53,106 bases of DNA from contig CAZXWI010000001.1 of assembly GCA_964644555.1 (NCBI GenBank), positions 1 to 53,106 on the forward strand, read 5' to 3'. The stretch comes from an uncultured Lachnospiraceae bacterium (GTDB lineage Bacteria; Bacillota; Clostridia; Eubacteriales; Anaerofustaceae). The position numbers and the translations under genes are program-made. Under the pieces are notes generated by a model. That model saw nothing but the letters and a program-made list of their open reading frames with translations, made no database searches and was not told where the DNA came from. This document shows positions 2,255 through 40,145 of the stretch, piece by piece. The stretch's first letter is position 1. Every line of letters starts with the position of its first letter.

Positions 2255-3241
2255 ATGAAATATATAAACACAGATTTCGATATACCGTATTACAATTTTG
2301 CTCTTGAAAACTATTTGATTACCAACCCGAAATTTACCGATGATTACTTTTTCTTTTATATTCACAAACCCAGTGTCATAATTGGCAAGCATCAAAATGC
2401 TTACGAAGAAGTAAATACAGAATTTATTAAAAACAACAACATCTATGTGGCAAGGCGGCTTTCGGGAGGAGGGTGTGTCTATCACGATGAAGGCAATTTA
2501 AATTTCAGCTTTATTACCAATAAAGAAAAAAATCAAACCATCGACTTTAAAAGATATACGAAATACATTATTTCAGCCCTCAAAGACTACGGCATAGATG
2601 CGCTTTTGCAAGGAAGAAACGATTTGTGCGTAAACGAAAGGAAATTCGGAGGCAATGCCCAATATATCCAAGGAAACAAAGTGCTGCACCATGGCACAAT
2701 AATGGTTGATGTAAACATAGAAAATATGCTTAATGCACTTAATGTAAGCAATATGAAAATAGAATCCAAAGCCATAAAAAGCGTAAGAAGCAGAGTTATC
2801 AACCTATCGGAATGTGCAGGATATAAAATCGATATTAATACTCTCAAGGAAAACATTCTAAAAGAAATATTTAAAGAAAAAGATGTCGATACTTATGCCT
2901 TAAACGAATATGACATAGCAAAAATCACTCACAATGCCGAAACCGAATTTGCCCCAAAAGAATACAATTGGGGAACAAACTACCCATTCGGCATTATCAA
3001 AAAAAAGAAATACCCTTGCGGCATTATTCAGGCAAATATAAATGTAAAAAACAATTTAATAACGGATTTTACTCTCAGCGGTGATTTTTTCACTAATAAG
3101 GATTTGGCAAAAATCAAAGATTCTTTATTAAATACTCCTTTTGAGCAAGAAAGCGTTACAAATGAGCTTAAAAAAATAGACTTCGATGGCTACATTAATA
3201 ATTTCACCATCGAAGAAATGATTGATTTATTGTTTTATTGA
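2255..3241 (+). CDS. lplA: Lipoate-protein ligase A
   Basis: LplA/LipB-family motifs RRLSGGGCVYHDEGNLNFSF and ERKFGGNAQ. Length 328 aa includes the C-terminal accessory domain. RBS-like AGGAGAA lies upstream. Confidence 0.85.
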   Translation: MKYINTDFDIPYYNFALENYLITNPKFTDDYFFFYIHKPSVIIGKHQNAYEEVNTEFIKNNNIYVARRLSGGGCVYHDEGNLNFSFITNKEKNQTIDFKRYTKYIISALKDYGIDALLQGRNDLCVNERKFGGNAQYIQGNKVLHHGTIMVDVNIENMLNALNVSNMKIESKAIKSVRSRVINLSECAGYKIDINTLKENILKEIFKEKDVDTYALNEYDIAKITHNAETEFAPKEYNWGTNYPFGIIKKKKYPCGIIQANINVKNNLITDFTLSGDFFTNKDLAKIKDSLLNTPFEQESVTNELKKIDFDGYINNFTIEEMIDLLFY

Positions 3242-11390: not shown

Positions 11391-12275
11391 TTATCTTGTT
11401 CTGAACCATGTTACATCCGAACTTGTAGGAAGAAGGAAATAATAGCCTCCGTCCTTCTCTGTAAGGAATGAGTTAACATTTTTTCTGAACTGCTCTTGAT
11501 TTACCAATTCGGGATAGTCCGTGGCATTAATAAGATCTTCGTAAGCAGCTTCCTTTGTGGGATACCATTTATCCCAGCCTTCATCTACTTTTGTGATATG
11601 CACCTCAATACCCTGTTCTTCCAAAACTTTTTTAAGGCTCGGACCATGCATGGGCAGCTTGTCGCTCATATCTATAGGACCACGACCTCCGAAAAGCTCT
11701 GTTTTTTCACCGGGTTTGGGTTCTGGTCTTTTTCTTTCTCGATCAAAAGGTCTTAAATCGGGGTGAGCCTGCATTGCCTCTTCGGAGTAACAATCTGTGA
11801 AGAGTTTACCTCTCGATTCGGGCAAACAAGGAGCGCCGTCCGACCACATAACGCTTACGGCAAATTGTCTTGCAGCCTTTTGAAGCATTTTAAGCGAGCT
11901 TGGGCCTCCGCCACCTCTTGACTGAATTACAACATCAACTTCCGGTATGGTAGTTCCGATTTCCGTTTCCTGCCAATCGGCATAAACAAATTCAACATTG
12001 GTTATACCTGCGGCTTCGCAGTTTTTTCTGCATTCTTCAAGCATACCCTCGGAGTTATCAAGGCAAATAACTTTTTTTACTCTCTTTGCAGCCTGTATTG
12101 CCACTCGTCCAGGGCCACAGCCGCAGTCCAAAACTACCATGTCTTCCGTAAGAGGCATTGCATCTAATTGCAAATTCGTTCCGTTTACTTCCATCAAAGT
12201 CATAAAGCTGTAGCCTCTTGCAGCTTTATCCCACATACTGGGTTTGACAGGAGTAGCTATTATGGTTTCTGTCAT
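11391..12275 (-). CDS. Class I SAM-dependent methyltransferase with uncharacterised C-terminal domain
   Basis: SAM motif I VLDCGCGPGRVA and post-I acidic residue (CLDNSEGM). The start was moved to the MTETII ATG (12275) because the longer ORF overlaps the upstream gene by 23 nt. Confidence 0.75.
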   Translation of the reverse strand: MTETIIATPVKPSMWDKAARGYSFMTLMEVNGTNLQLDAMPLTEDMVVLDCGCGPGRVAIQAAKRVKKVICLDNSEGMLEECRKNCEAAGITNVEFVYADWQETEIGTTIPEVDVVIQSRGGGGPSSLKMLQKAARQFAVSVMWSDGAPCLPESRGKLFTDCYSEEAMQAHPDLRPFDRERKRPEPKPGEKTELFGGRGPIDMSDKLPMHGPSLKKVLEEQGIEVHITKVDEGWDKWYPTKEAAYEDLINATDYPELVNQEQFRKNVNSFLTEKDGGYYFLLPTSSDVTWFRTR

Positions 12276-12291
12276 TTTTATTTTTCCGTTT

Positions 12292-13116
12292 CTATAATAG
12301 ATTCCAATTACCAACCGATTTTCTCACATCAGTAAATCCGTACTTCACAAAATCGGTATTTAAAAATTCCTTTAAAAATTCTTCGGCAGCTTCCTTATTC
12401 TGTGCATTATCGGGTATTACCGCCGCATGAAATATAGTTGTGCCGAATATTTCGTTTCCGCCGTCAACAACAAAAGACACCTTGTTATACTCTTCTTCGA
12501 AATTTTCATCCCCCAAATTCATAACTTTCGGCAAAAGAGCATAATTAAAATTGTTACCTACTGCGGAACTTCGATAGGATATCTGATATACATTATCTTC
12601 GCACATTGGGGCAAATGCCTTATGCTCAGGCTTTTTATTATCGGGCTTTCTGTTTCTTTCGTACTGCTTTCTGTCTAAGCCCTTATAATTTGGGTTTGAA
12701 AATATTCTTTCGCTCAAACCATCTTCAACCCTATCCGCAAGCTTGATTGCCATAACGGCTCTGTATCCGCTCGGGTCGTCGTAAGGGTTCATATGTTTTA
12801 ATGTTGCCTCATCTGAGGTAAGCTTTTCAGCCCAATTATCATCATTTACATCATTTCCCACAACAACCATCTCATTTCCGCCCCAAATGTAGTATCCGCT
12901 ACAATATTCGGGCATCATCAATTGCTTGATGTTGCTGTCATCGGCAAGGAGCATCAAATCGAATTTTTCGCCTGATAAAAGCTTGTTGATACCGCCTGTA
13001 GAGCCGCCCATAATAAGCTCGCACTCCATATCGGGGTTTTCTTTTTTATAACGCTCTAATGTTTCTTTGGCAATTTTTCCACATACACCTGCGCTGAATA
13101 TTCTAAGCATTTTCAC
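12292..13116 (-). CDS. ModA/WtpA-like periplasmic-binding-protein-fold protein lacking a signal peptide (predicted cytoplasmic)
   Basis: Type-II PBP-like blocks (IMGGSTGGINKLLSGEKFDLMLLADD, DPSGYRA) resemble oxyanion-binding proteins. There is no hydrophobic N-terminus or lipobox. Confidence 0.6.
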   Translation of the reverse strand: MKMLRIFSAGVCGKIAKETLERYKKENPDMECELIMGGSTGGINKLLSGEKFDLMLLADDSNIKQLMMPEYCSGYYIWGGNEMVVVGNDVNDDNWAEKLTSDEATLKHMNPYDDPSGYRAVMAIKLADRVEDGLSERIFSNPNYKGLDRKQYERNRKPDNKKPEHKAFAPMCEDNVYQISYRSSAVGNNFNYALLPKVMNLGDENFEEEYNKVSFVVDGGNEIFGTTIFHAAVIPDNAQNKEAAEEFLKEFLNTDFVKYGFTDVRKSVGNWNLL

Positions 13117-13126
13117 CTCCGTATAA

Positions 13127-13897
13127 CTAACAGACTATGCAAACATTTCGTTTGGCATCTTCGTCATATACAGTTTTAATATCGAGATTATATAATGACG
13201 AAAGCATTTCCTTATTTAGGGTATCAGCCGCATGCCCCACACCCAATACACCGTTTTTGTCAAGTATTGCAACTTTGCCGTCAAGTATAATTGCGTGATC
13301 CGGATTATGTGTAGTCATAATTACGGCATACCCCTCTTTCGCAAGTTCTTTTACCATTTGCACAACACGATATTGATTGCCGTAATCAAGATGTGCCGTT
13401 GGTTCATCAAGCAAAATAAGCTTGGGCTGTTGTGTTAAAGCTCTTGCTATGGTAACTTGCTGACGCTCTCCCCCCGATATTTCGGTATAAGCTTTGTCCT
13501 TAAGATGAAGTATATTCATTCTCTCCAGGGATTCTTCGGCTATCATATAATCCTCTTTTGACGGTTTTGAGAATGTTCCGATATAGGGTGTTCTGCCCAT
13601 AACGGTAAATTCCAATACGGTATATGCATAAGCAGGAGTATGTATCTGCGGCACATATCCTATTATTCTGGCAACATCGTTCATGCTCATTGAACTTGAA
13701 TCTTTACCGTTTAAATATATATGTCCGCTTGCGGGTTTAAACAGATTCGCAATGCAGTTCAGCAAAGTGGACTTGCCAGCACCGTTTGTTCCCAAAATGG
13801 ACAGAACCTCGCCCTCATCAAGCTGAAAACAAACATCATGAAATATAGTTCGGCTGTTATAATATTTGTAGCTTAAATCTTGTACATCAAGTATCAT
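13127..13897 (-). CDS. ABC transporter ATP-binding protein, FepC/BtuD (type II importer) family
   Basis: Walker A GTNGAGKST, signature ISGGERQ, Walker B LILLDEPT. 4-nt overlap with the permease gene. Confidence 0.9.
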   Translation of the reverse strand: MILDVQDLSYKYYNSRTIFHDVCFQLDEGEVLSILGTNGAGKSTLLNCIANLFKPASGHIYLNGKDSSSMSMNDVARIIGYVPQIHTPAYAYTVLEFTVMGRTPYIGTFSKPSKEDYMIAEESLERMNILHLKDKAYTEISGGERQQVTIARALTQQPKLILLDEPTAHLDYGNQYRVVQMVKELAKEGYAVIMTTHNPDHAIILDGKVAILDKNGVLGVGHAADTLNKEMLSSLYNLDIKTVYDEDAKRNVCIVC

Positions 13898-14940
13898 GTC
13901 AAAGTCCTGTTCTGTTTAATTAAAATGAAAATAAAGAAAGGTGCGCCGATTATACCCGTCAATACGCCCAATTTGAGTTCAGCCGTAGATAATGTTCTGC
14001 AAAGCATATCTATTATAAGCATAAAGATTGAACCCAAAAGCATTGCCATAGGAAGCATTTTTTTATTGTCAGAGCCGATAAGCATTCGGGATGTGTGAGG
14101 TATTATCAAACCTACCCAGCCGATACTGCCCGAAACACTTACGCAACTTGCGGTTATCAATGTTGAAAAGAAAATAAACATTCCTCTGGTTTTTTGAAGA
14201 TTGATTCCCAGTGAACGTGCTTCGTTATCTCCCAAAGACAAAACATTGAGTCGATAACGCATTAATATAATCAAAAAGCACGGTATCAACACCATCGGCA
14301 ATATCGACAAAAGTTCCGACATGGTTATTGTGGCAAACGACCCCATTGTCCAATAAGTGATTTCCGCCAATTGAGTATCGGTATCAGCCAAAGCTTTTAT
14401 TACACTCATTACCGATGACATAAGGCTGCTTACCACGACACCGGATAAGATAAGTATCGTAGTGGATTGACTTTTAATCAATTTCGGAATGAGCGTTGTA
14501 ATAAATACCGCCGCAATTCCTCCAATGAATGCCAAAAGCTGAATAAAGAGGCTGTTGAAATTCAATAAAATAGCAACTGCCGCCCCTATGCACGCACCGG
14601 ATGAAACCCCAAGTAAATCGGGGGATGCCATCGGGTTTTTGAATATGCTTTGATAACAAGCACCCGATAAAGCAAGCCCTGCCCCTACGACTACCGATGT
14701 CAATGTTCGGGGTAAACGCAGATTAATTACCACAGCTTCCTCGATATTCGACCATGTTTTTTTAATGCCGAAAATTTTTGATGCCAAAATTTTAATTACA
14801 TCACCCAAATTAATGCTGTATCGCCCAAGTGCAAGTGATGCGGCTACCGTCAGTAACAGAGCCGCAAACACTATGCCGACAACAACCCGATATTTTTTAT
14901 CGGAAAAATTTGTGGATTTATTGTCAATTGATTTTTTCAT
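13894..14940 (-). CDS. FecCD/BtuC-family ABC importer permease
   Basis: About 10 TM helices and conserved FecCD blocks (RLPRTL, GAGLALSG, NPMASPDLLGVSSGA, TGIIGAPFFI). Confidence 0.9.
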   Translation of the reverse strand: MKKSIDNKSTNFSDKKYRVVVGIVFAALLLTVAASLALGRYSINLGDVIKILASKIFGIKKTWSNIEEAVVINLRLPRTLTSVVVGAGLALSGACYQSIFKNPMASPDLLGVSSGACIGAAVAILLNFNSLFIQLLAFIGGIAAVFITTLIPKLIKSQSTTILILSGVVVSSLMSSVMSVIKALADTDTQLAEITYWTMGSFATITMSELLSILPMVLIPCFLIILMRYRLNVLSLGDNEARSLGINLQKTRGMFIFFSTLITASCVSVSGSIGWVGLIIPHTSRMLIGSDNKKMLPMAMLLGSIFMLIIDMLCRTLSTAELKLGVLTGIIGAPFFIFILIKQNRTLT

Positions 14941-14961
14941 TGTTAAGAATTAAAAGTAAAA

Positions 14962-16077
14962 TTAGTTAAGTTCCTGTGTTCCATCAGGAAGCAAACCGTT
15001 TAACATATTGTTAGCCTGATCTTTTGTAAGCTCAGTGCCGTTCATTGTTTTGTAAAAGCTAATGATCTGCTCTGCCATGTAATCTTTTGTTATGCCGTTA
15101 GCTTCTGCGATTTCAGGCTGGATGCACAATAAAGCGTAATCTACCTGCAAGTAGCTTTCAAGTCCGAATCTATCCCAGTTAAAGCATGCATAGGGGTTGT
15201 TGTAAACTCTGCCGTTCTGAACTGCTTTGAGGTCTTTCCAACCGTCTGATGTTGCAATCTGTTCAAGAAGCTTATGCTGATATACGCCACCAACGATGAT
15301 AACATCAGGGTTTGCAGCAAAGATTTCTTCAACTGTGATTTCGTTGCCGGCAAGATTGATAACTGCAGGTAAGTATTTACCTCCGTTTGCTTCAACCCAG
15401 TTCTGAATAATTGTATTCTGACCCATTGTAGCTGTAAGGCTGTCGCTCTGACCGGAAATGTACATAACTACAGGTTTGTCTTCATCTGCCACATTTGCAA
15501 CGAGGTTTTTGTTGTTTTCAATCTTTGTACCGACTTCTGTACACCACCAGGTGAGTTTTTCTTTGTATTCACCGCCCAAGATTTCAGCGAGCATTGTGTA
15601 TGCCTGAATCATTGTATCGTAGTTACTGAAGTTGATGTTGATTGCGGGAATACCAGCATCTCTGATCTGCTGAGCGTATCCGTCTTTAGCTGATGAAGGA
15701 TGCACGATTACCAGGTCCGGTTCGAGTTTAACGAGTTCTTCAACTGCGGGAGTTGTTCCGCCGAGGCCCTGAATTTCAGTACAACCTTCGTAGAAGAATT
15801 TTGTCCAACCGTTCATTGTTGCAGGTGTGTTCATTGCAAGACCGCTTACGAGGTCTCCTGCACCCATGACAAAGAATGAAGATGTACCTGCAGGCCAAAG
15901 GTTAACGATTGTTTTTACTTCGCCCTCGATAGTTACTTCATCACCGCTCATGTCGGTTACTGTGATTGTTCTGTTTGTAAGATCTTCTTCATTGTTTTTG
16001 GAGCTTGTGCAGCCTGCAAAAACGCTTAAAGCAATAAGAACAACTAATAAAACAGAAACTATTTTTTTCGTTTTCAT
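14962..16077 (-). CDS. Lipoprotein substrate-binding protein of BtuF/FhuD (class III PBP) type
   Basis: Signal peptide with lipobox FAGC. Two-lobe PBP blocks (LEPDLVIV, ANPDVIIVGG). Strong RBS AAGGAGAA. Confidence 0.85.
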   Translation of the reverse strand: MKTKKIVSVLLVVLIALSVFAGCTSSKNNEEDLTNRTITVTDMSGDEVTIEGEVKTIVNLWPAGTSSFFVMGAGDLVSGLAMNTPATMNGWTKFFYEGCTEIQGLGGTTPAVEELVKLEPDLVIVHPSSAKDGYAQQIRDAGIPAININFSNYDTMIQAYTMLAEILGGEYKEKLTWWCTEVGTKIENNKNLVANVADEDKPVVMYISGQSDSLTATMGQNTIIQNWVEANGGKYLPAVINLAGNEITVEEIFAANPDVIIVGGVYQHKLLEQIATSDGWKDLKAVQNGRVYNNPYACFNWDRFGLESYLQVDYALLCIQPEIAEANGITKDYMAEQIISFYKTMNGTELTKDQANNMLNGLLPDGTQELN

Positions 16078-16309
16078 ATTGTTTTCTCCTTAGGTTTTAT
16101 ATTTAAATATCATATCGATATTTAGGCAAAATAAAATGGGTTCCCGTAGTATATAAAATTTTACATACTAAAAAGGAACCCACAGTGTGCGTAAATCAAT
16201 AATATTTCACTTGCAGTATTCCTTTCCAAATACGGGAGGCAAACAAATTTCTTAGTTTACCCATCGGTTATTTTCCTTGGTCAAAGCTTTAGGAATAATA
16301 ACTCGGAAT
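16078..16309 (-). promoter_or_regulatory. Long 5' leader with internal intrinsic terminator (candidate riboswitch or attenuator, class unresolved)
   Basis: On the minus strand, GGGTTCC-TTTT-TAGTAT...ATACTA-CG-GGAACCC is followed by ATTTTATTTT, ending about 50 nt before the start codon. Upstream AAAGGAA can pair with the TTCCTTT of the terminator 5' arm. Confidence 0.45.
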
Positions 16310-16315
16310 AATTTC

Positions 16316-16344
16316 ATTATACTTAATATTCCAAAATGTTGCAA
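16316..16344 (-). promoter_or_regulatory. Sigma-70-type promoter of the importer operon
   Basis: TTGCAA (16339-16344), 17-nt spacer, TATAAT (16316-16321) on the minus strand. Confidence 0.55.
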
Positions 16345-30365: not shown

Positions 30366-30917
30366 ATGAAAAGCACCTCTATTAGAAAAGTAACCATGAT
30401 AGGGCTTATGTCGGCATTGGTTTTTGTGGGGACTCACATAAGAATAAAAATCCCGGTAGGGCTTGACGGAACAATGCTTCATCTGGGCAATGTTTTCTGT
30501 CTTTTATCGGGGATAATTTTCGGGCCTGTTTCAGGGGGGCTTGGTGCAGGACTTGGCAGTGCCATATTTGATTTAAGCAGCGAGTATGCCTCGGAAGTAT
30601 GGATAACATTTATCAATAAATTCGCAATGGGCTTTGTTTCGGGGTTTTTGTCAAAGCATTTACCGAAAAATCTAAACTTTACCCTATCCAAAACCATATC
30701 GGCATTGTGCGGTTCATTGACATATATTATTCTTTATATAGGAAAAACCTACATATATAACCGCTGTATATATTCTCTGCCCATTGAGGGTGTAATGGCT
30801 GTAGTCGGAGTAAAAGCCGCAGTAACTTCGGTAAATTGCTTGATTGCTGTAGTAATAAGTGTGCTATTTGCAAGGGCATTAAAAGAGCCGCTTTCAAAAT
30901 CGGGAATACATTATTAG
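30366..30917 (+). CDS. ECF transporter S (substrate-capture) component
   Basis: 183 aa with 6 hydrophobic helices and a typical S-component N-terminus (KVTMIGLMSALVFVGTHIRIKIP). RBS AAAGGAGAA. Confidence 0.75.
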   Translation: MKSTSIRKVTMIGLMSALVFVGTHIRIKIPVGLDGTMLHLGNVFCLLSGIIFGPVSGGLGAGLGSAIFDLSSEYASEVWITFINKFAMGFVSGFLSKHLPKNLNFTLSKTISALCGSLTYIILYIGKTYIYNRCIYSLPIEGVMAVVGVKAAVTSVNCLIAVVISVLFARALKEPLSKSGIHY

Positions 30918-30920
30918 ATA

Positions 30921-30962
30921 AAAAGACCTTCGTATATTAAATTACAAAGGTCTTATTTTTAT
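30921..30962. terminator. Bidirectional terminator (ECF S gene / hydF-containing operon)
   Basis: Stem AAGACCTT/AAGGTCTT (30923-30954) with a T-run 3' on the plus strand and an A-run 5'. Confidence 0.7.
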
Positions 30963-31042: not shown

Positions 31043-32257
31043 TTACTTATTTTTCTCTTTCAAATAATCTTCGTACAAATCGGGAAGAACTTTGACTCCT
31101 CTTTCCAATATGCCATTCATATACGCAATAGCCAAGCCATAATTCGTCATCGGCACATTTTGGTCAAAAGCACATTTTGTGCGGTATACAAGCTCTCTTG
31201 TGTTGAGCATACAGCCTCCGCAGTGCAAAATAAGCGAATATTTGCTTAAGTCATCCGGAAATCCCGTGCCGCTTGAAAGCTCTATATCAAAATTTGCATT
31301 TGTTCTTTCTTTAAGCCAATGCGGTATCTTGACGCTACCGATGTCATCGCATTGCCTGTGATGAGTGCAGCCCTCCGCTATAAGCACGGTGTCGCCGTCT
31401 TTAAGCCTGTCGATTGCCGTAACCCCCATAACGGCTTCTCTTAAAAAGCCCTTGTGCCTTGCAAGCAATATCGAAAATGATGTAAGAGGAACATCATCGG
31501 GAGTAAGCTTTGAAACAAGCCCAAACACCTGAGAGTCCGTAATTACCATTTTGGGCTTTTTCGATAAAGATTCCAAAGTTTTACTAAGTTCTGTTTCTTT
31601 ACACATAGCAACGATTGCATTCGCATCTAACACATCACGCATCATCATTTGCTGGGGTAGTATCATTCTGCCTTTAGGTGCCGAAGAATCTATGGGAGTA
31701 ACCAAAACCACAATATCCCCATCAGACAACAAATCTTTTACCAAGGGAATCTCTTCATCGTTCGGTTTAAGATAAGCAAGCTTTTCTTTTAATTCGTAAA
31801 TTCCTATATTTTTTTCGGCACTGACATATATTTCATTTTCGCTTGGCTCAGAGTGGTTCGGTTTCATCTCGCATTTGTTATAAGCAATAATATAATTTAT
31901 TTTTTTATCCTCAAACAGCGAAACAAGCTCCCTATCAAGAGAAGTGATTCCCTTTTGTATATCCACCACCAAAACTGCGATATCCGTTTTATTCAGAACC
32001 TGTTTTGTCTTTTTCACTCTCAAAAGACCGAGTTCGCCCTCGTCATCATACCCCGGAGTGTCGATTATCATAACAGGCCCTAACGGCAAAAGCTCCATGG
32101 ATTTGCTCACAGGGTCGGTGGTCGTGCCTTTAGTGTCGGAAACAACCGCCAAATCCTGATTGGTAACCGCATTCACAAGGCTTGATTTTCCTGCGTTTCG
32201 AAGCCCGAAAAAACCTATATGAACCCTCTCTGCCGAGGGTGTATCGTTAAGCCCCAT
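31043..32257 (-). CDS. hydF: HydF-type GTPase ([FeFe]-hydrogenase H-cluster maturation scaffold family)
   Basis: GTPase G1 GLRNAGKSS, G3 DTPG, G4 NKCE. The C-terminal cluster motif EGCTHH...HCGGC matches the HydF CxH...HCxxC signature. Confidence 0.85.
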   Translation of the reverse strand: MGLNDTPSAERVHIGFFGLRNAGKSSLVNAVTNQDLAVVSDTKGTTTDPVSKSMELLPLGPVMIIDTPGYDDEGELGLLRVKKTKQVLNKTDIAVLVVDIQKGITSLDRELVSLFEDKKINYIIAYNKCEMKPNHSEPSENEIYVSAEKNIGIYELKEKLAYLKPNDEEIPLVKDLLSDGDIVVLVTPIDSSAPKGRMILPQQMMMRDVLDANAIVAMCKETELSKTLESLSKKPKMVITDSQVFGLVSKLTPDDVPLTSFSILLARHKGFLREAVMGVTAIDRLKDGDTVLIAEGCTHHRQCDDIGSVKIPHWLKERTNANFDIELSSGTGFPDDLSKYSLILHCGGCMLNTRELVYRTKCAFDQNVPMTNYGLAIAYMNGILERGVKVLPDLYEDYLKEKNK

Positions 32258-32286: not shown

Positions 32287-33390
32287 TTATTTGAATGCAG
32301 CAGCATCTTTGCCCGGTGAGAATATCTTTTGAGCCTGCTCATCGGTAAGGGTAATATCGAATACCGCTTCGTAATAATCTTTTGTTTCCTGAGTTATATC
32401 AATATCGCTGAAAATTTCGGGATAAACGGTTTTTGCAAGCCACATGAGCGTAACAGGAGTATCTACTCCGCAAGTATAACTTCTGTACATACCAAGGGGC
32501 ATTTTGCTTACCTTATTGTTTTCAACTGCGGCAATTCCGCTCCAATCAAAGCTGCCTATAGTATTGTTGTATAAATCATACGGCAATGCCTGGTTAAAGT
32601 TGGTAATAAGTATTCTGTCGGGATTCCATGTGTATACCTGTTCAAGGTTTACCTGAGTTGAATAAGCTGTTTCCATTTCTTCGCCGACATTTTTTGCGCC
32701 AATGGCATCAGCCCACCATTGTCCAAAGAATTTTTTGCCCGATGTGGTTATCATTGTGTCGTTATATTGGAAAAGGAAAAATACTTTTTCTCTCTCTTCG
32801 TTCGAAAGTGATGCCACTCTTTGCTGAACGAAATCATACTTTTCTTCGCTGTATTGTTTAACAAGATCGGCTCTGTCGTTTTCGGGGAATAATTCCGACA
32901 AAAGAGCTATCCAGTTGTTAAGAGTTTCTATTGCATCATAATCCCATTTGCCTGCCGAAATTCCTATAGCCGCAAAGCCCGCATCTTTAAGCTGAGTACC
33001 TATCTGTTCGGATTCGGCACTGTAGAATACAACATCGGGATCAAGTTTGATTATTTCTTCGATATTGATATTAGTTCCGTCAATAAATGCTGTCTGTGCA
33101 TTTAAAATTTCAGGATATAATTCCGATAAGAGGCTGTTCTGTGCGGCACTCATGCTCGGCTGAGCAATACCCACCAATTTTTCCGCAGAATCAAAGAATA
33201 CAGCCAAAACCGACGGAAGCGGATAAATATCGCATACGACTATACGCTCGATATTTTTCGGCACTTCCACCTCATTGTCAGCATGATCGATAATGGTTAT
33301 GGTGTCGGAAGAATTATTTCCGTTCGTTGTGCAACCGAATAACCCAATTACGGTTACTGCTACCAAAAGTAAAGCAACTAATTTTTTCAT
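32287..33390 (-). CDS. Lipoprotein substrate-binding protein of BtuF/FhuD type (paralogue of 14962-16077)
   Basis: Signal peptide plus lipobox FGC. Blocks LDPDVVFY and WNPDRILITN. ATGA overlap with the upstream K-like gene. Confidence 0.85.
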   Translation of the reverse strand: MKKLVALLLVAVTVIGLFGCTTNGNNSSDTITIIDHADNEVEVPKNIERIVVCDIYPLPSVLAVFFDSAEKLVGIAQPSMSAAQNSLLSELYPEILNAQTAFIDGTNINIEEIIKLDPDVVFYSAESEQIGTQLKDAGFAAIGISAGKWDYDAIETLNNWIALLSELFPENDRADLVKQYSEEKYDFVQQRVASLSNEEREKVFFLFQYNDTMITTSGKKFFGQWWADAIGAKNVGEEMETAYSTQVNLEQVYTWNPDRILITNFNQALPYDLYNNTIGSFDWSGIAAVENNKVSKMPLGMYRSYTCGVDTPVTLMWLAKTVYPEIFSDIDITQETKDYYEAVFDITLTDEQAQKIFSPGKDAAAFK

Positions 33391-34529
33391 TCTAAATTTC
33401 TCCTTACAAATTCATTAAAATTTTCTACCAAATTAGGTATTTCTTTTCTGTAAATTCTGCCCGAAAAAGCTTCGTGCGGCAAATTTACGAATTTCGCACC
33501 CGTTGGACAAATGGGTTTATACATCTTATCCGCAATGATGATTTTTGCCTTTTCCAAGTGCGGTATTATTTCATCTTCATCGATAGCCGAAATGCATCCG
33601 TCTCCGATAAAAATGTCATCAATGTCAGTGGCGCAAATTACATTTGCACCGTATCCCGAATGATAATAAAGTGCATTGGCTAACGAAAGCGAAGTAACAC
33701 CTTCTCCGATTATTACCACATCGTCATTCACAAATGTTTTCGGAAGATAGTTTTCTTTAGTTTCAGCCGATAATTTTATCTTATCTATAATATTATCGCT
33801 GAACTCATCACCGTATAAAGCACCTACAACATACGGGATATTAAACCTTTTCTCTAATACTTTTGCGGCTCTCATTGCACAGGACGAAACTACCAAATTT
33901 ACCTTTGCATGTTTTGCTTTAATCATATTCTCGTATGTGTCATTCATTGCCCATACAGAATTGACTTTGATATTGTTTTTCTCAAGTTTTTTTCTTAAAG
34001 ATATATCAGAACCGTTTATCGAAAAATCAAGGGGAGTAACGCCCAAAATGTTTACGCTGAGTTCATCAGATGCCACTTCGTCATCACTGCAAATTCTCTC
34101 GGCAAATTGCTCAAATGCAAGATCTGCTCCTCTGACATACGAATGCATTCCATCGGTTGGAATACCGAATGAAATTATTCCGGTATCTTCTTGTATTTCA
34201 CGGGCTATTGCAGGAATATCCACTCCCGTCATCATCGGTATGGGAGTGCCTGCTATGGCAATGAATTTCGGCTTAAGCACCTCGGCAGCCTTTTTTATAT
34301 CAGATATCAATTTGTCATCATCGCCCAATATTGCTTCGGTTTCGGTTATTGCCGAAATATATACCATGCTGTCCATGTCGTACCATCTCGGTTCGTCATG
34401 GGTGCCGTATGTGGAATTGCACCCTGATGCATCATGCATTATGCACATACCGCCCAATTCGTATAAAGCAGAACATACACCCGATGTATCCGAAGCATAT
34501 GTGGATATTATTTTAGCTGTTTGTTTCAT
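33387..34529 (-). CDS. Nitrogenase component-1-type oxidoreductase subunit, NifK/NifN/BchB-like (380 aa)
   Basis: MHDASGC block resembles the H-G-x-x-G-C motif of the nitrogenase component-1 family. Start set at the ATG forming an ATGA overlap with the upstream stop, with GGAGGG 7 nt upstream. Confidence 0.8.
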   Translation of the reverse strand: MKQTAKIISTYASDTSGVCSALYELGGMCIMHDASGCNSTYGTHDEPRWYDMDSMVYISAITETEAILGDDDKLISDIKKAAEVLKPKFIAIAGTPIPMMTGVDIPAIAREIQEDTGIISFGIPTDGMHSYVRGADLAFEQFAERICSDDEVASDELSVNILGVTPLDFSINGSDISLRKKLEKNNIKVNSVWAMNDTYENMIKAKHAKVNLVVSSCAMRAAKVLEKRFNIPYVVGALYGDEFSDNIIDKIKLSAETKENYLPKTFVNDDVVIIGEGVTSLSLANALYYHSGYGANVICATDIDDIFIGDGCISAIDEDEIIPHLEKAKIIIADKMYKPICPTGAKFVNLPHEAFSGRIYRKEIPNLVENFNEFVRRNLE

Positions 34530-35848
34530 ACACACCCTCCGCAGCCTAAACCCTTTTCGGAAATGAAAGTTTTAACATCTTTTGCATTTTCGTAAGCATC
34601 ACAAAGCATTTCGGCAAATTTGATTATTCCGTCAAAGGCATACAACCCGCCGTCCTCCACGATATTCACAAAATACTCTGTCGATGTAAAATATGCCGCC
34701 TTTTGCCCAATCGCCAAAACTTTTTCTTTTAAGTTGCGGTTTATTCTTCGCATTGATGTATGTATGCTCGGAGCTAAAATCATTTCCGGGGAAATGTTTT
34801 TTAGAATCTCAAAGTCCCTCTTTTCATCTGCAGTAACAGAATCCAGATACACCTTTTTTACATTAAAACCCTTTTTAATTAAAAGTTTAGCTAAACTGAG
34901 TGGTCTAGAAAACGCCGTGTAATCAATAACTATAGGTGTATCGCCTATCAAATCAAGCGCTTTTGCCAAAATTTGGTCGCACTTTGTTATTTCAGGAGAG
35001 TAATCTGGCATACTTACATTAAGAGCATTTGTAAGAACACTTAAATTATCAATAATTTCGTCATAATCAAAGCTAAAGGGCAAATACAAATGGGTCTGTC
35101 CGAATCTTTCGTTTAGGTACTCACCTGCTGTTTTGGCAGCCGGGAATGTGCTTATACATATTGAGCATTCTGCCATTTCAAGGTAATCTTCAAAATTTTT
35201 ATAATCCTGAATCTGCATAAGCTTATATCCGTTGTCGGTTACAAGCTTTGCAAGTTCGCTGTTGTTACTGACGGCAAAATCGCCTCCGACTATGCTAACA
35301 GCTTTTTTATTTATATCTCTTTCTTCGAGCAAGCTATATAGCCGCCTTCTCATAAGTTGATCGGGGGTGAGTCCGCTCTTTCTCATAATGGGGTTCATAT
35401 AGCAGTCGGTAAAACGAACAGTGGGAAACAATCTTCGAAGTTCGGAAAGCACGATATCCAAATCCGTCCCCATAAAATGATGCACACAGCTTGTAAACAA
35501 AAGTACTGCGGGAGGAAGTGTATTAAGCTTATTTAGTATGTCGGTAACACCATCTATTATCAAGCTTTCCATATCACCGTCAAGCACATTTTGTTCTCTT
35601 ACGGCAATGGTGGAAAACCTGTCTGACAGCCCCATTTCAGCCGCAGTTAAAACGACTCCTCTTAGACACCCCTGAGCACACACGAATATTTGGTGAGCCT
35701 CAGGCACAAGCATACCCGTATGCACAATATTCCATGTACCTCTGGCAGGAGCGGAATATTCCAATCCTGTGTCAAATAATTTCGGCAAGCTCGCATCTTT
35801 TATTTTAATATTCGGTTCGTCAATAATTTCGCCGATTTTTTTTAACAT
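34526..35848 (-). CDS. Nitrogenase component-1-type oxidoreductase subunit, NifD/NifE/BchN-like (440 aa)
   Basis: FVCAQGC block aligns by eye with the HGPxGC motif. Further Cys motifs FTSCVHHF, TDCYMNP and ECSICIS; C-terminus ends CGGCV. Start set at the ATG one nt after the NifH-like stop, with GGAG upstream. Confidence 0.8.
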   Translation of the reverse strand: MLKKIGEIIDEPNIKIKDASLPKLFDTGLEYSAPARGTWNIVHTGMLVPEAHQIFVCAQGCLRGVVLTAAEMGLSDRFSTIAVREQNVLDGDMESLIIDGVTDILNKLNTLPPAVLLFTSCVHHFMGTDLDIVLSELRRLFPTVRFTDCYMNPIMRKSGLTPDQLMRRRLYSLLEERDINKKAVSIVGGDFAVSNNSELAKLVTDNGYKLMQIQDYKNFEDYLEMAECSICISTFPAAKTAGEYLNERFGQTHLYLPFSFDYDEIIDNLSVLTNALNVSMPDYSPEITKCDQILAKALDLIGDTPIVIDYTAFSRPLSLAKLLIKKGFNVKKVYLDSVTADEKRDFEILKNISPEMILAPSIHTSMRRINRNLKEKVLAIGQKAAYFTSTEYFVNIVEDGGLYAFDGIIKFAEMLCDAYENAKDVKTFISEKGLGCGGCV

Positions 35849-35849
35849 A

Positions 35850-36605
35850 TCATTCTCCGCATACACTTATTATTTCATTTGCCAAAATTTCATATTGCTT
35901 TGCCATTTCACTTTCGGGGAAGGCTTCTATGACGGTCTTGCCAAGAGATTCGGCTTCCAAAACAATATCACTTCTATCAAGCGAACCTATTATTCTCGAA
36001 TTTATATCCGAAGCAAGCTCTTCGACCTTTTCGGTTTCGTTTTTCACATTTCTTCTGTTTAAAATAAGCCCACCGAAAGAGGAATACCCTCTTTTTTTGA
36101 ACCCTTCTACGGCAACGGCAATGTTAGCCGCCGCATGAAGCGACATATTTTCTCCCGATGTAACCACAAACACATGCTGAGCGTATCCCGGACGCATGGG
36201 CATTGTAAATCCACCGCATACTACATCACCAAGAACATCGTACAATACTATATCCGGCTTATATACTTCGTAAACGCCTTTTTCTTTAAGCTTTTCCAAT
36301 GCAGCGATTATCCCTCGCCCTGCGCAGCCGGTTCCCGGAGTAGGACCTCCTGCTTCCACGCAAATGACACCACCGAAACCAAGCCTTAACATATCATCAA
36401 GCTCAAAATCATTGCCATTTTCTCTTACCAAATCCAGTACCGTAGGTATTTTATTCTCCGAACGAAGAAGTACAGTGGAATCTGCTTTCGGGTCGCAGCC
36501 TATTTGCATTACTTTATATCCTTTTTTAGAAAGTGCAGCCGCCACATTCGAAACCGTAGTGGATTTGCCTATTCCGCCTTTTCCGTAAACAGCGATTCTA
36601 ATCAT
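35850..36605 (-). CDS. NifH/BchL/CfbC-family ATPase (nitrogenase iron-protein-like)
   Basis: P-loop [10 protein letters not shown], switch I CDPKADST, both 4Fe-4S Cys contexts ([13 protein letters not shown]). Confidence 0.9.
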
Positions 36606-37665
36606 TGACTTCTCCTTTTATGTAATCTTTATGATCTCCTCGGTCGCACACTACCTCGTAGCCTATCTGTGCCATTTGCTCTTTTAATATATTTATTCCC
36701 AATTCGGCAGTCAGATCCGTGCCGACCTTGTTATCGTAGAGCATATATTTTTTTCTGACATCACTCGGTGATATGTTCGGCATAACAACATTACATCCAC
36801 ACAACACTCCCAATTTTCGACCGTCGGCATTTGCAGTGCCGAGTGCCGTAGTAGCAGGCAAAAGCACATCGGGCAGCATAATTCGAGTTAAGCTCATTAA
36901 AAATAATGTAAGGCTCACATCTCCGCAAGGTTCTGAGCCAAAGGGGGTATCTTTATGAGAAATGAACGGTCCAATACCCACCATAGCAGGAGAAAATTCC
37001 CCTATAAAGAGCATATCCTTTGCCAAATTCTCAATGCTTTGGTATTTAACCCCCACCATAAATCCACAGCCCACCTGATAGCCTATTTCTTTTAAGTCAT
37101 TTAAGCATCTCATTCTGTTTTCATATTTTTGGTAGGCAGGGTGTATTTTTTCGTATAAATCTTTATCTGCCGCTTCGTGCCTTAAAAGATATCTGTCGGC
37201 ACCCACATTAAAAAGTTTTTCATATGAATTACGGCTGAGTTCACCCACCGACAGAGTAATGGCACAGTCGGGGTATTTCTTTTTTATATCGGATACAATA
37301 TCGCAAAGAATCTCATCTTTGTAATATGTATCCTCACCGCCTTGCAATACGAATGTGCGAAATCCATATTCGTAACCGATATCACAGCACGATAAAATAT
37401 CGTCCTTAGTAAGTCTGTAGCGATTGGCATTTTTATTGGAATGACGAATACCGCAATAGTAGCAATCGTTTTTGCAATAATTGGTAAATTCTATAATGCC
37501 TCGAAAATATATTTTCTTTCCGAATCTATCCACCGATATCTTTTGAGCAAGCTCGGAAGCATAATCAAAGTCCTGCTTGTCGTATGACGATAACAGGTGA
37601 GTCCATTCTTCAAAGCTCAAGCATTTTTCTTCATTCAATTTGTTGATAAGTTGTTTATTATTCAT
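36598..37665 (-). CDS. hydE: Radical SAM enzyme of the HydE/BioB/PylB clade (HydE-like)
   Basis: [13 protein letters not shown]3CX2C motif at about residue 65, GGE block (LQGGED), GCGFMVG block; about 355 aa. Start set at the MNNKQL ATG (37665), which overlaps the ATPase stop. Confidence 0.7.
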
Positions 37666-38749
37666 CGACACCGCACCTTTTTTGAGCAAATGTTGTTTTT
37701 ATGCTCAAATTTCCCAATATACTTAGTCTGTGAGTTAGCACCTCGGCTTCGCTCTTGGGAGAATCCAAGGTAAAGTTAATGATGTACACTCCTGCTTCCC
37801 TATATGGGATACCCATTCTGCCGATAACATATTGGTTATAAGCATGAATTTCCTTGTTGATTTTATCAGCTAATTCATAGTCGCTGAAAATTACGGCAAC
37901 AACGGCTATGACATTTTCCGAGTCATCTATTTGCTTATCTGCCTTTTTATCATCGGAAATTTGTAAAGGCATTATGTTTTTATATATATTTTCTTCCGTT
38001 TCCACTTCTCCGATAACAGCCTTAACTCCGAATACCGATTCGATATTTTCTTCCGTAACTATTTTTGCGGTTTCTCCGAAAACAGCTTCACCGTTTTTCG
38101 GTAGGAGCAATGATTTATCGGCTCGGGAAAGTGCATGAGTCGGATAATGCGTATTGAAAATGCATCCTATATTTTCACTATGAGCTAATTCCGACATGGT
38201 ATTTAACACGATAAGCTGATTTCTGAAATCCAAATTAGATTCGGGCTCGTCCAAAATCAATAGCTTGGGTTCGTTTATCAATGCTCTGGCTATCAACACC
38301 ATTTGAAGCTCGCCGCCGCTTATTTCGTTGCATTTTTTACCCGTTAAATAGGATATGTTGAGCCTTTGCATTAATCTATCGACTTTCTCATAATCTGCCT
38401 TTTTCGGCTGAGAGAACACTCCTATTTTATCGGCAAGACCCAAAAGGATCATATCTTCCGCTTTCATTGACGATGAAGTGCCCTTTGCTTGCGGCACATA
38501 AGAAACATTTTGCCAAAATTTCTTTTGGTTCATTTTGGAAATGTCCTCGCCGTCAAGAGTGCTTAACCCTTTGCTCCATTTCAAAAATCCCATTATGCAC
38601 TTGAGCAATGTAGTTTTACCTGCTCCATTAGGGCCTAAAACTGCAACCAGTTCCCCCGAATTTAGTGTAAAATTTAAATTTTTGATTATATATTTTTCGC
38701 TTTTATATCCGAAAGAAGCGTTTTCTACACATAGCTTCATAATTGCCAC
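37658..38749 (-). CDS. ABC importer ATPase (FepC/BtuD type) with C-terminal TM1266-like domain
   Basis: Walker A GPNGAGKTT, signature ISGGELQ, Walker B LLILDEPE. The last approx. 90 aa (VIAVVAVIF...VIGRMGIPYR...) are homologous to the 87-aa protein at 39743-40006. Confidence 0.85.
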   Translation of the reverse strand: MAIMKLCVENASFGYKSEKYIIKNLNFTLNSGELVAVLGPNGAGKTTLLKCIMGFLKWSKGLSTLDGEDISKMNQKKFWQNVSYVPQAKGTSSSMKAEDMILLGLADKIGVFSQPKKADYEKVDRLMQRLNISYLTGKKCNEISGGELQMVLIARALINEPKLLILDEPESNLDFRNQLIVLNTMSELAHSENIGCIFNTHYPTHALSRADKSLLLPKNGEAVFGETAKIVTEENIESVFGVKAVIGEVETEENIYKNIMPLQISDDKKADKQIDDSENVIAVVAVIFSDYELADKINKEIHAYNQYVIGRMGIPYREAGVYIINFTLDSPKSEAEVLTHRLSILGNLSIKTTFAQKRCGVDE

Positions 38750-39753
38750 CCCTCGGAACGCCTCATTAATGTGATAAAGAATGGAGCTCCGATAATTGCC
38801 GTCAACACCGATATGGGTATTTCCGCAGCCGAAACGCTCCTTGCCAAAGTGTCAACTATAACCAGAAAAGTCCCTCCTAAAATGACCGATGACGGCATTA
38901 ATAACAAGTGGTTATTGCCAAAGAGCATTCTACACATATGCGGTATCAAAAGCCCTACCCAACCGACCTGACCGCACATGGAAACGCATGAAGCGGTAAT
39001 GCCGGTGGAGCACAGAACGCAAACTACCCTGAGTAAATTGATATTAACTCCCGTGGCACGAGCCTCTTCTTCGGAAAGAGGCAAAATATTAAGCCGCCAG
39101 CGCATTAACAAAAGAATAGTTATTCCGATTATTATTATGGGCGAACCCAACAATAGCGATTTATAATTGGCAGCCGATAAATTACCCATAAGCCAATATG
39201 TTATTTCGGGTAGTTCACTTTCCACATCGGCGGTAAATTTCACCAAAGATATCAATGCCGAAAATAGAGAACCTATCATTATTCCTGCCAAAACCACATT
39301 GCTCAAGGCACTTTTTGACTTACTTTTGCCCGAAAGCACGGTAAGCACTACAGCAAGAATGCCGAAAAACAACGATACAAATTGAACTCCAATGAGTTCG
39401 AATCCCAAAAGCAGACCTAAAGCCGCCCCAAATGAAGCCCCCGATGCCACACCCAATGTATCGGGGGTTGCCAAAGGGTTATTAAATAGGCTCTGAAAAG
39501 TGCATCCTGCAGCAGAAAGCCCGGCTCCTGCCAAAAATGCGAGCAATATTCTCGGAAAGCGAATACTCCATAAAACCCGCTCCGTTTGATTTGATAACAC
39601 TTCTCCTCCGAATATGTGAACCTTAATCGATAAAATAACATCCCCTACCGATACATTCATTCGCCCTATGCATAAACAGCACAGTATAGTGAAAACAGGC
39701 AAAATTATCAAAATAATCTTTGATAATAAAGACATTTTGTTACTACTTTTCAT
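38737..39753 (-). CDS. FecCD/BtuC-family ABC importer permease
   Basis: FecCD blocks RFPRIL, GAGLSAAG, NNPLATPDTLGVASGA, TAIIGAPFFI. Start uncertain: 39789, 39753 or 39735. 39753 gives an 11-nt overlap with the upstream gene. Confidence 0.85.
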   Translation of the reverse strand: MKSSNKMSLLSKIILIILPVFTILCCLCIGRMNVSVGDVILSIKVHIFGGEVLSNQTERVLWSIRFPRILLAFLAGAGLSAAGCTFQSLFNNPLATPDTLGVASGASFGAALGLLLGFELIGVQFVSLFFGILAVVLTVLSGKSKSKSALSNVVLAGIMIGSLFSALISLVKFTADVESELPEITYWLMGNLSAANYKSLLLGSPIIIIGITILLLMRWRLNILPLSEEEARATGVNINLLRVVCVLCSTGITASCVSMCGQVGWVGLLIPHMCRMLFGNNHLLLMPSSVILGGTFLVIVDTLARSVSAAEIPISVLTAIIGAPFFITLMRRSEGWQL

Positions 39754-40006
39754 CTTTGTAAACAACTCCCGAATATGCCGTTTTGGCACTTATTCCGTTA
39801 AGGCGACCTATTTTACCGGATATGGCGCTTATTATATCCTGTGGTGCATCAACCGCAACACTCAAAATATTGATTCCTCTCTTTCGATACGGAAGTCCCA
39901 TTCTGCCTATTATATATTCGCCGTATTCGTGAAGTATCCCATTGAGAGATTCCACCGAATCCGTATTTTCTACTATAATTCCTATGACGGCAATTCTTGT
40001 TTCCAT
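39743..40006 (-). CDS. TM1266-family small protein ('iron-only hydrogenase system regulator' family, ACT/NikR-C-like fold)
   Basis: 87 aa, RIAVIGIIVEN...IIGRMGLPYRKRGINILSVAVDAP pattern. RBS AAGGAG 7 nt before the ATG. Confidence 0.7.
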   Translation of the reverse strand: METRIAVIGIIVENTDSVESLNGILHEYGEYIIGRMGLPYRKRGINILSVAVDAPQDIISAISGKIGRLNGISAKTAYSGVVYKDEK

Positions 40007-40145
40007 ATTCGCTCCTTAAAAAATAAACTGCACCCTTAAAGATGCAGTTATCCCTTAGCATTGCTACAACGTTGTAACTCAAAAGAAAAATTATTTCTGC
40101 ATCTTCCATCTCAAAACGAATTTTCAATGTTAGAATACTTATTTA
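40007..40145 (-). promoter_or_regulatory. 5' leader with mutually exclusive terminator and antiterminator hairpins
   Basis: Minus-strand RNA has AACTGCA-tctttaaggg-TGCAGTT followed by TATTTTTT directly before the RBS. Upstream AAGATGCAG (40097-40105) is perfectly complementary to CTGCATCTT (40039-40047). The palindrome TACAACGTTGTA lies between them. Confidence 0.5.

Follow-up and report, generated by a model that had tools for sequence, protein, structure and literature searches.

The stretch of DNA analysed here (the window; 53,106 nucleotides [nt] of contig CAZXWI010000001.1, assembly GCA_964644555.1, from an uncultured Lachnospiraceae bacterium) contains a nine-gene operon in which genes for two hydrogenase maturases, HydE and HydF, stand together with genes for a nitrogenase-like (Nif-like) complex and an importer. 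Its nine genes occupy 40006 to 31043 of the minus strand, and the terminal one, hydF, had been singled out in an original prediction made from the sequence. The features of the operon, in the order of transcription, are as follows.

40018..40137 (may reach ~40215), minus strand: conserved leader/attenuator with the core CTAACATTGAAA...TTGAGATGGAAGATGCAG, a variable hairpin and an intrinsic terminator at 40049..40026
39743..40006, minus strand: first gene, TM1266-like small ACT-fold protein of 87 amino acids (Pfam PF21699, 109 bits; PDB 2NZC, T. maritima TM1266, E 1e-10)
38737..39753, minus strand: FecCD/BtuC-type permease of a type II ABC importer (Pfam FecCD, 278 bits)
37658..38740, minus strand: ABC ATPase with a C-terminal TM1266-like domain at residues ~281-352 (ABC_tran, 118 bits; PF21699, 55.6 bits)
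36598..37665, minus strand: HydE radical SAM maturase with the motif CKNDCYYC (TIGR03956, 533.8 bits against a cut-off of 254.6)
35850..36605, minus strand: NifH-like ATP-dependent reductase (Pfam Fer4_NifH, 294 bits)
34526..35848, minus strand: NifD/E-like subunit, deeply divergent (Pfam Oxidored_nitro, 45 bits)
33387..34529, minus strand: NifK/N-like subunit (Pfam Oxidored_nitro, 107 bits)
32287..33390, minus strand: Peripla_BP_2 substrate-binding lipoprotein with the lipobox LFGC (Pfam, 52 bits)
31043..32257, minus strand: hydF, last gene of the operon, ATG at 32257 and stop at 31043, encoding a [2Fe]-subcluster scaffold GTPase of 404 amino acids
30923..30954, minus strand: terminator-like hairpin ending the operon, bidirectional, which also serves a convergent ECF S-component gene

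The eight genes upstream of hydF join one another by overlaps or a spacing of 1 nt (the start of the permease gene was adopted from the called gene in locus L005). The sole spacer is the 29 nt between the stop of the binding-protein gene at 32287 and hydF, and it contains GGGAGG 7-8 nt ahead of the ATG. The gap, the ribosome-binding site and the absence of an intervening terminator had all been predicted, and indeed no terminator-like site lies between the binding-protein gene and hydF. The first such site after hydF is the hairpin at 30954..30923, which agrees with the placing of hydF as the last gene. To this earlier picture we add the opening TM1266-like gene, the TM1266-like domain on the ABC ATPase and the assignment of the operon to the minus strand. 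A motif scan, Pfam searches of 38 open reading frames and tblastn detected no HydA H-cluster motif, HydG, HypCDEF or AspA in the 53 kb window, so the statement that neither a hydrogenase nor hydG lies nearby holds over this distance. HydE is the only radical SAM gene in the operon.

HydF takes up the precursor of the 2Fe subcluster and hands it over to HydA. The window HydF is an orthodox, full-length member of this family. It scores 547.4 bits against the HydF equivalog profile TIGR03918 (cut-off 325.55), with residues 6-386 matching positions 2-390 of 392, and it has the Pfam domains MMR_HSR1, HydF_dimer and HydF_tetramer (PF18128, 137 bits; PF18133, 159 bits). The solved T. melanesiensis HydF, 5KH0, aligns with residues 11-391 at 349 bits, and 3QQ5 and 5LAD align likewise. 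The GTPase motifs and the cluster-binding signature noted originally are all present: GLRNAGKSS (G1, residues 18-26), DTPG (G3, 66-69), NKCE (G4, 127-130) and the [4Fe-4S] signature CxHx(46-53)CxxC, here EGC297-T-H299-H followed, at the canonical spacing of 46 residues, by H-C346-GG-C349. The Asp-to-Glu change in G4 does not depend on genomic context, as three HydFs encoded in canonical hydG-linked operons also have NKCE.

The neighbourhood of hydF was surveyed by comparing the window HydF with one genome per GTDB species (185,579 species genomes) and annotating the flanks of the matches with tblastn. This gave 80 loci in 80 different assemblies, at 59-69% identity; the representatives scanned do not include the source species, and the best match among them is at 69%. 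Since these 80 loci are those most similar to the query, the following shares are not unbiased frequencies.

Full nine-gene cluster: 7/80 loci
Other arrangement adjoining the same Nif-like family: 15/80 loci
hydG adjacent, mostly as TM1266-hydE-hydG-hydF: 19/80 loci
TM1266-hydF only: 5/80 loci
Solitary hydF: 34/80 loci
hydG and Nif-like genes together: 0/80 loci

Thus 22 of the 80 HydF loci adjoin Nif-like genes. By our own estimate, adjacency of such genes to hydF by chance would be expected in less than 1% of cases, because they make up at most one or two clusters in a genome of a few thousand genes.

The reverse search gave the same result. Metagenomes were scanned with a profile of the NifD-like protein, and dereplication at 90% identity left 23 loci whose flanks were adequate; these too are the best matches to the query, so that the counts are not population frequencies.

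Importer type: 13 loci, with TM1266 in 12, HydE in 10 and HydF in 10
Hyp type: 9 loci, with TM1266 in 8, HydE in 2 and HydF in 2
TM1266, HydE and HydF only: 1 locus, with each of the three present

Maturase genes of the Hyd or Hyp type are found in all 23 loci and TM1266 in 21 of them, while hydG is found in none. The importer and Hyp modules are mutually exclusive across the set. The same nine-gene block also occurs with different flanking genes (HydF 86% identical), and the association as a whole spans Oscillospiraceae, Lachnospiraceae, Blautia and Megasphaera. It takes at least three gene orders and involves four to eight maturase-type genes. Because the linkage recurs across species, across gene orders and in both search directions, it is real and reciprocal rather than an accident of co-transcription, and there is strong support for a functional connection of HydF with the Nif-like proteins. 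We found no open-access or preprint paper that ties HydE/HydF or Hyp genes to nitrogenase-like genes; one study of an ammonia-lyase analysed hydF neighbourhoods, and nitrogenase is not mentioned in it (PMC11736057).

A minimal cluster, consisting of the leader, TM1266 and the NifH/D/K-like genes only, was seen in a Clostridium sp. (locus L012, 7554-13421; GCA_001705235.1). PDDEXK_2 transposase-like genes border it on either side, which hints at a mobile core module.

In 14 of the 15 other Nif-linked HydF loci, all-against-all clustering of open reading frames revealed additional conserved genes. Pfam searches identified these as HypF (acylphosphatase, zinc fingers, YrdC and Kae1-like domains), HypD, HypE and an aspartase-type lyase, AspA. 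A HypC gene, whose product begins with MC, sits between HypF and HypD, and HypE ends in PRIC. The full order of these sister clusters is NifH2-NifD2-NifK2-HypF-HypC-HypD-HypE-TM1266-NifH-NifD-NifK-HydF-AspA-HydE, as in L027 (1-12529), L077 and L065; further Hyp-type clusters are those of L057, L078, L055 and L040, and variants in Megasphaera intestinihominis (L040) and Blautia (L078) have no separate NifH copy. The M. intestinihominis strain, CLA-AA-H81, is a cultured carrier. In the sister loci only the listed Hyd, Hyp and Nif queries gave tblastn matches; HypA, HypB and the [NiFe] large subunit were not specifically searched. The sister clusters thus unite the [NiFe]-type machinery for CN/CO-ligated iron, the [FeFe]-type machinery for 2Fe assembly and two nitrogenase-like complexes, all without HydG. 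AspA encoded next to hydF is known to furnish ammonium for the dithiomethylamine bridge (PMC11736057).

The Nif-like proteins themselves fall below the NCBIfam family cut-offs. The NifH-like protein has the P-loop GKGGIGKST and two cluster cysteines, C94 and C130, conserved in 23 of 23 sequences. It is an equivalog neither of NifH (325 bits, below the cut-off of 394) nor of CfbC (316 bits, below 402). In the D-like protein C63, C67 and C127 are invariant in alignments of 19 and 67 sequences (A1 and A4), and C442, in a terminal KGxGCxxC, is invariant in the former and at least 90% conserved in the latter. As to counterparts of the NifD cofactor ligands Cys275 and His442, the alignments show no conserved cysteine at residues 128-441. 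The K-like protein has C39 as the sole conserved cysteine of its N-terminal half, and H34, H46 and C301 are also conserved. As judged from the alignments, the cysteines of the two subunits correspond to the 3+1 pattern predicted to bind a [4Fe-4S] cluster of the NifEN/DPOR type, with no P-cluster. A true nitrogenase was ruled out, as the conserved cysteines are too few for a P-cluster (six needed, three per subunit), the scores are below the cut-offs and no nifB or nifEN lies nearby.

The D-like protein has no NCBIfam match, and the best match of the K-like protein, nifE at 73 bits, is far under the cut-off of 505. Against the PDB the D-like family profile finds NifE best, at an E-value of only ~1e-6. 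An AlphaFold model of the D-like protein (pLDDT 87, pTM 0.87) adopts the component-1 fold, with a disordered C-terminal tail at pLDDT below 50. In a Foldseek search the model matches NifK, AnfK, NifE/N, MarD/K and BchN/B about equally (TM-score ~0.6, 12-15% identity). Because these proteins are matched about equally and at low identity, the D-like family is a deep, separate branch of the nitrogenase superfamily; a search for homologues returned 4,102 related sequence clusters, mostly from Clostridia. The terminal KGxGCxxC (34526-34550) lies on the tail predicted to be disordered, and it recalls the terminal cysteines of the carrier maturases HypC and HypE.

The importer has all the parts of a type II system: a FecCD permease, an ABC ATPase and a Peripla_BP_2 protein with an export signal and the lipobox LFGC. 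The best PDB matches of the binding protein are 4OVK (158 bits, uncharacterised) and MolA HI_1472 (77 bits, a molybdate/tungstate binder). The fusion of the ATPase to a TM1266-like domain is present in all loci of the window type. It recalls the trans-inhibited importers MetNI and ModBC, and it raises the possibility that transporter and free TM1266-like protein sense one and the same ligand.

The leader precedes importer-type clusters, some Hyp-type clusters and eleven canonical hydE-hydG-hydF operons, and within 2.1 Mb of loci it was found only directly upstream of TM1266/hyd genes. Its homologues were collected with nhmmer and covariance model R1 (an earlier strict regular-expression search had given only 5 matches). 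The core may also be written CTGACAYCGAAA-N-TTGAGRTGRAAGAYRC. The 5' arm of the terminator can alternatively pair with AAGATGCAG (the conserved AAGAYRC segment), and this second pairing is kept through AU/GC and UA/CG swaps, with 78% of cells paired versus 32-49% in slid controls. Since a homologous leader stands before both operon types, the Nif-like and the canonical maturase operons would answer to the same signal. No match to the leader was found in Rfam at either gathering or E-value thresholds, which rules out a known riboswitch. The leader holds two similar GAnAYnGAA-like boxes, and it is a candidate for a new riboswitch or for a binding site of the TM1266-like protein.

Does hydF in this setting differ from its canonical counterparts? 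In a neighbour-joining tree the Nif-linked HydFs branch at six or more separate points, interspersed with canonical and solitary HydFs, and the window HydF is sister to the HydF of a canonical TM1266-hydE-hydG-hydF operon. Its closest named relative, at 71% identity, likewise comes from such an operon. The median identity among importer-type HydFs is 67.0%, as compared with 66.8% between these and canonical HydFs, and the functional motifs are the same across all genomic contexts. The scattered tree positions, the lack of an identity gap and the common motifs lead us to reject a subclade of HydF paralogues. No assembly occurs twice among the 80 best HydF loci, which is weak evidence for a single copy. 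The window HydF is therefore probably the organism's ordinary GTPase scaffold for the [2Fe] subcluster of the H-cluster and no specialised paralogue. The importer-type HydEs, on the other hand, form a clade of their own, being ~62% identical to each other and ~55% to canonical HydEs. For these HydEs, for example those of the window (36598-37665), L013, L014 and L015, identity to canonical sequences lies ~7 percentage points below that within either group, a split that HydF does not show.

We consider that the operon is a variant hyd maturase operon without HydG: the NifH/D/K-like complex replaces hydG, an importer has been added and an orthodox HydF stands last; the chances that this is correct appear to us about even. 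The NifH/D/K-like genes and the binding-protein gene lie exactly between hydE and hydF, where the closest canonical relative has hydG. Four features lead us to infer a place for the Nif-like complex upstream of HydE and HydF, as a substitute for HydG: the order of the genes, the lack of hydG in all such clusters, the leader common to canonical operons, and terminal cysteines like those of carriers; the final recipient would presumably be a HydA encoded elsewhere in the genome. As to whether the complex feeds HydE and HydF or receives their product, the absence of hydG and the gene order fit the former at least as well.

According to this proposal the operon would be switched on through the terminator/antiterminator leader that it has in common with canonical hyd operons. 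The importer would take up a metal-containing precursor, which in the sister architecture could instead be made in the cell by HypFCDE and the second Nif-like set. The NifH-like protein, driven by ATP, would send low-potential electrons to a [4Fe-4S] cluster at the interface of the D- and K-like subunits, and the D/K-like complex would process or scaffold an iron unit and pass it to HydE. HydE might then dimerise the iron unit, and HydF would finish the CO/CN-ligated, azadithiolate-bridged 2Fe unit and deliver it.

A broader form of the proposal we hold more tentatively, at somewhat under an even chance: that the deep-branching nitrogenase-like H/D/K proteins define a HydG-independent route to CO/CN-ligated iron, working with either HypFCDE and a second Nif set or the importer, and with HydE, HydF, AspA and the TM1266-like sensor. 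Such a route would yield either a second pathway to the H-cluster or a new organometallic cofactor of a nitrogenase-fold protein, and it would be common among Clostridia and Negativicutes of the gut and rumen, under an undescribed leader RNA.

Several observations weigh against a HydG-less route. Within the window-type cluster nothing obvious would supply CO or CN, unless the imported compound or genes elsewhere do so, and the relatives of the binding protein fit the supply of a heterometal as well as that of a precursor. HydE and HydF are missing within 10 kb in 7 of the 9 Hyp-type clusters. The separate HydE subclade could mean a dedicated second system and not a remodelled housekeeping one. 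In addition, the trees are distance-based, built by neighbour-joining without support values, and the shares among the 80 HydF loci are drawn from those closest to the query.

Some of the same observations would be accommodated if the D/K-like protein were the recipient of a CO/CN-ligated 2Fe-type cofactor built by HydE and HydF. This is the second option of the original prediction without its paralogue. The complex would then represent an ATP-driven metalloenzyme of a new kind, reduced by the NifH-like protein and supplied with Fe(CO)(CN) units by HypCDEF or by a hydG at another site in the genome. The conserved and reciprocal linkage is as expected in this case, and the window-type HydE subclade is what a dedicated pathway would produce. 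The two Nif-like sets of the sister architecture would parallel the scaffold NifEN and the enzyme NifDK of nitrogenase, the cysteines and histidines exceed the need of one [4Fe-4S] cluster (C442 of the D-like protein; H34, H46 and C301 of the K-like protein), and loci with only TM1266 and NifHDK exist (L012). However, HydF is indistinguishable from canonical HydF and is without a second copy per assembly among the 80 best loci, and hydG never occurs in the cluster, although window-type clusters without Hyp genes would need it. Moreover, in an operon that is otherwise canonical and has the same leader, the Nif-like genes stand where hydG would be, and TM1266-hydEGF operons normally lack genes for the apo-hydrogenase. 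We regard a recipient role for the D/K-like protein as less likely than the replacement of HydG, but as a serious rival to it.

Alternatively, the Nif-like reductase and the importer could provide chelated or reduced iron, sulfide or a heterometal to the ordinary HydEFG pathway, with hydG elsewhere, so that the complex would be neither a substitute for HydG nor a recipient. The class of the importer (metal-chelate/oxyanion) would suit this, as would feedback by a small ligand, to which the TM1266-like domain on the ATPase points, and a leader common to canonical operons. Such a supply line is nevertheless improbable, as it leaves unexplained both the presence of HypFCDE and a second Nif-like set in the place of the importer and the exclusion of hydG from the 22 and 23 clusters of the two surveys.

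Two further readings, both raised by the original prediction, have very little left to recommend them. That housekeeping hydE and hydF merely hitch-hike in the transcript of an unrelated nitrogenase-like/transport system would suit the frequent scattering of hyd maturase genes in Clostridia (solitary in 34 of the 80 HydF loci), but it is contradicted by the recurrence of the HydF/HydE/TM1266-Nif-like link in at least three gene orders, in several taxa and from both the HydF and the Nif side. The other reading, in which a specialised HydF paralogue serves the Nif-like enzyme as scaffold or insertase alongside a second, canonical HydF, is just as hard to sustain: the proposed functional link to the Nif-like proteins stands, but the distinct paralogue does not, in view of the tree, the identities, the motifs, the score far above the equivalog cut-off and the single occurrence per assembly among the 80 best loci.

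The surroundings of the operon in the window are as follows. Downstream and convergent, at 30366..30917, lies the ECF S-component gene that shares the terminator; upstream is a sugar ABC operon, unrelated and separately terminated. A second FecCD-type importer (11391-16320, minus strand) is headed by a riboswitch for the molybdenum/tungsten cofactor (Moco) at 16203-16320. Behind the riboswitch come genes for a Peripla_BP_2 binding protein (14962-16077), the permease (13894-14940) and the ATPase (13127-13897), and after them genes for a ModA-like SBP_bac_11 protein and a methyltransferase. The Peripla_BP_2 proteins of this importer and of the Nif-like operon are 25% identical. A gene for a lipoate-protein ligase, LplA (2255-3241, plus strand), is separated from the operon by 28 kb and probably has no relation to it; assembly of the dithiomethylamine ligand of the H-cluster needs lipoylated H-protein.

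On the current view, assembly of the H-cluster requires exactly HydE, HydF and HydG, and assembly of the [NiFe] site, by HypA-F, is separate. Likewise, we know of nitrogenase-like enzymes only in nitrogen fixation, tetrapyrrole reduction and C-S bond cleavage. The joining of HydE, HydF and AspA, with HypFCDE in the sister clusters, to NifHDK-like proteins, always to the exclusion of HydG, suggests a second route to iron with diatomic ligands or a new metalloenzyme of the nitrogenase fold. If this is true, inference of hydrogenase capacity from gut and rumen metagenomes would change, hydrogenase engineers would gain an alternative maturation route, and a large orphan branch of the nitrogenase superfamily, with thousands of sequences, would receive its first functional context. 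The shared leader is a candidate for a new regulatory RNA of hydrogenase maturation.

Among known systems, comparisons can be made with Elusimicrobia 'group VI' paralogues, which stand in a different context of radical SAM/B12 genes without Hyd or Hyp genes, and with clostridial acetogens reported to be without a recognisable HydG, in which hyd and hyp genes are scattered and do not form this cluster. With type II importers (BtuCD-F, MolBC-A and the trans-inhibited MetNI and ModBC) the operon shares the FecCD permease, the Peripla_BP_2 protein and an ATPase with an extra C-terminal domain of a ligand-binding type. The regulatory domain of the window ATPase is, however, TM1266-like, of a family otherwise tied to hyd maturase operons.

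DPOR (BchLNB), COR, CfbCD and MarHDK have the same H/D/K layout and comparable structural similarity, and the NifH-like protein scores nearly equally as CfbC and NifH. They differ in that no genes of tetrapyrrole or sulfur metabolism lie near the window operon, all family scores fall below the cut-offs and the context is one of organometallic maturases. The scaffold system NifEN/NifH offers a component-1 fold, 3+1 cysteines, a dedicated NifH-like ATPase and a setting among genes of cofactor assembly; here, however, identity is 12-15% and the TM-score ~0.6, the partners are Hyd and Hyp maturases, and NifB, NifDK and other nif genes are not nearby. HypCDEF, which makes the Fe(CN)2CO unit of [NiFe] hydrogenases, is embedded in the sister clusters as complete HypF, HypC, HypD and HypE, but it is absent from the window, and in the sister clusters it is joined to HydE, HydF and AspA of the other hydrogenase class.

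Finally, the canonical maturase operon (TM1266-like gene, hydE, hydG, hydF, often aspA) differs from that of the window in several ways. The window operon has no hydG and carries the NifH/D/K-like genes and a binding-protein gene in its position, a permease and the ATPase-TM1266 fusion follow its first gene, and its HydE belongs to a separate subclade. Yet both open with a TM1266-like gene behind a homologous leader, both encode HydE and HydF that score above the equivalog cut-offs, and both end with HydF or continue only to AspA.

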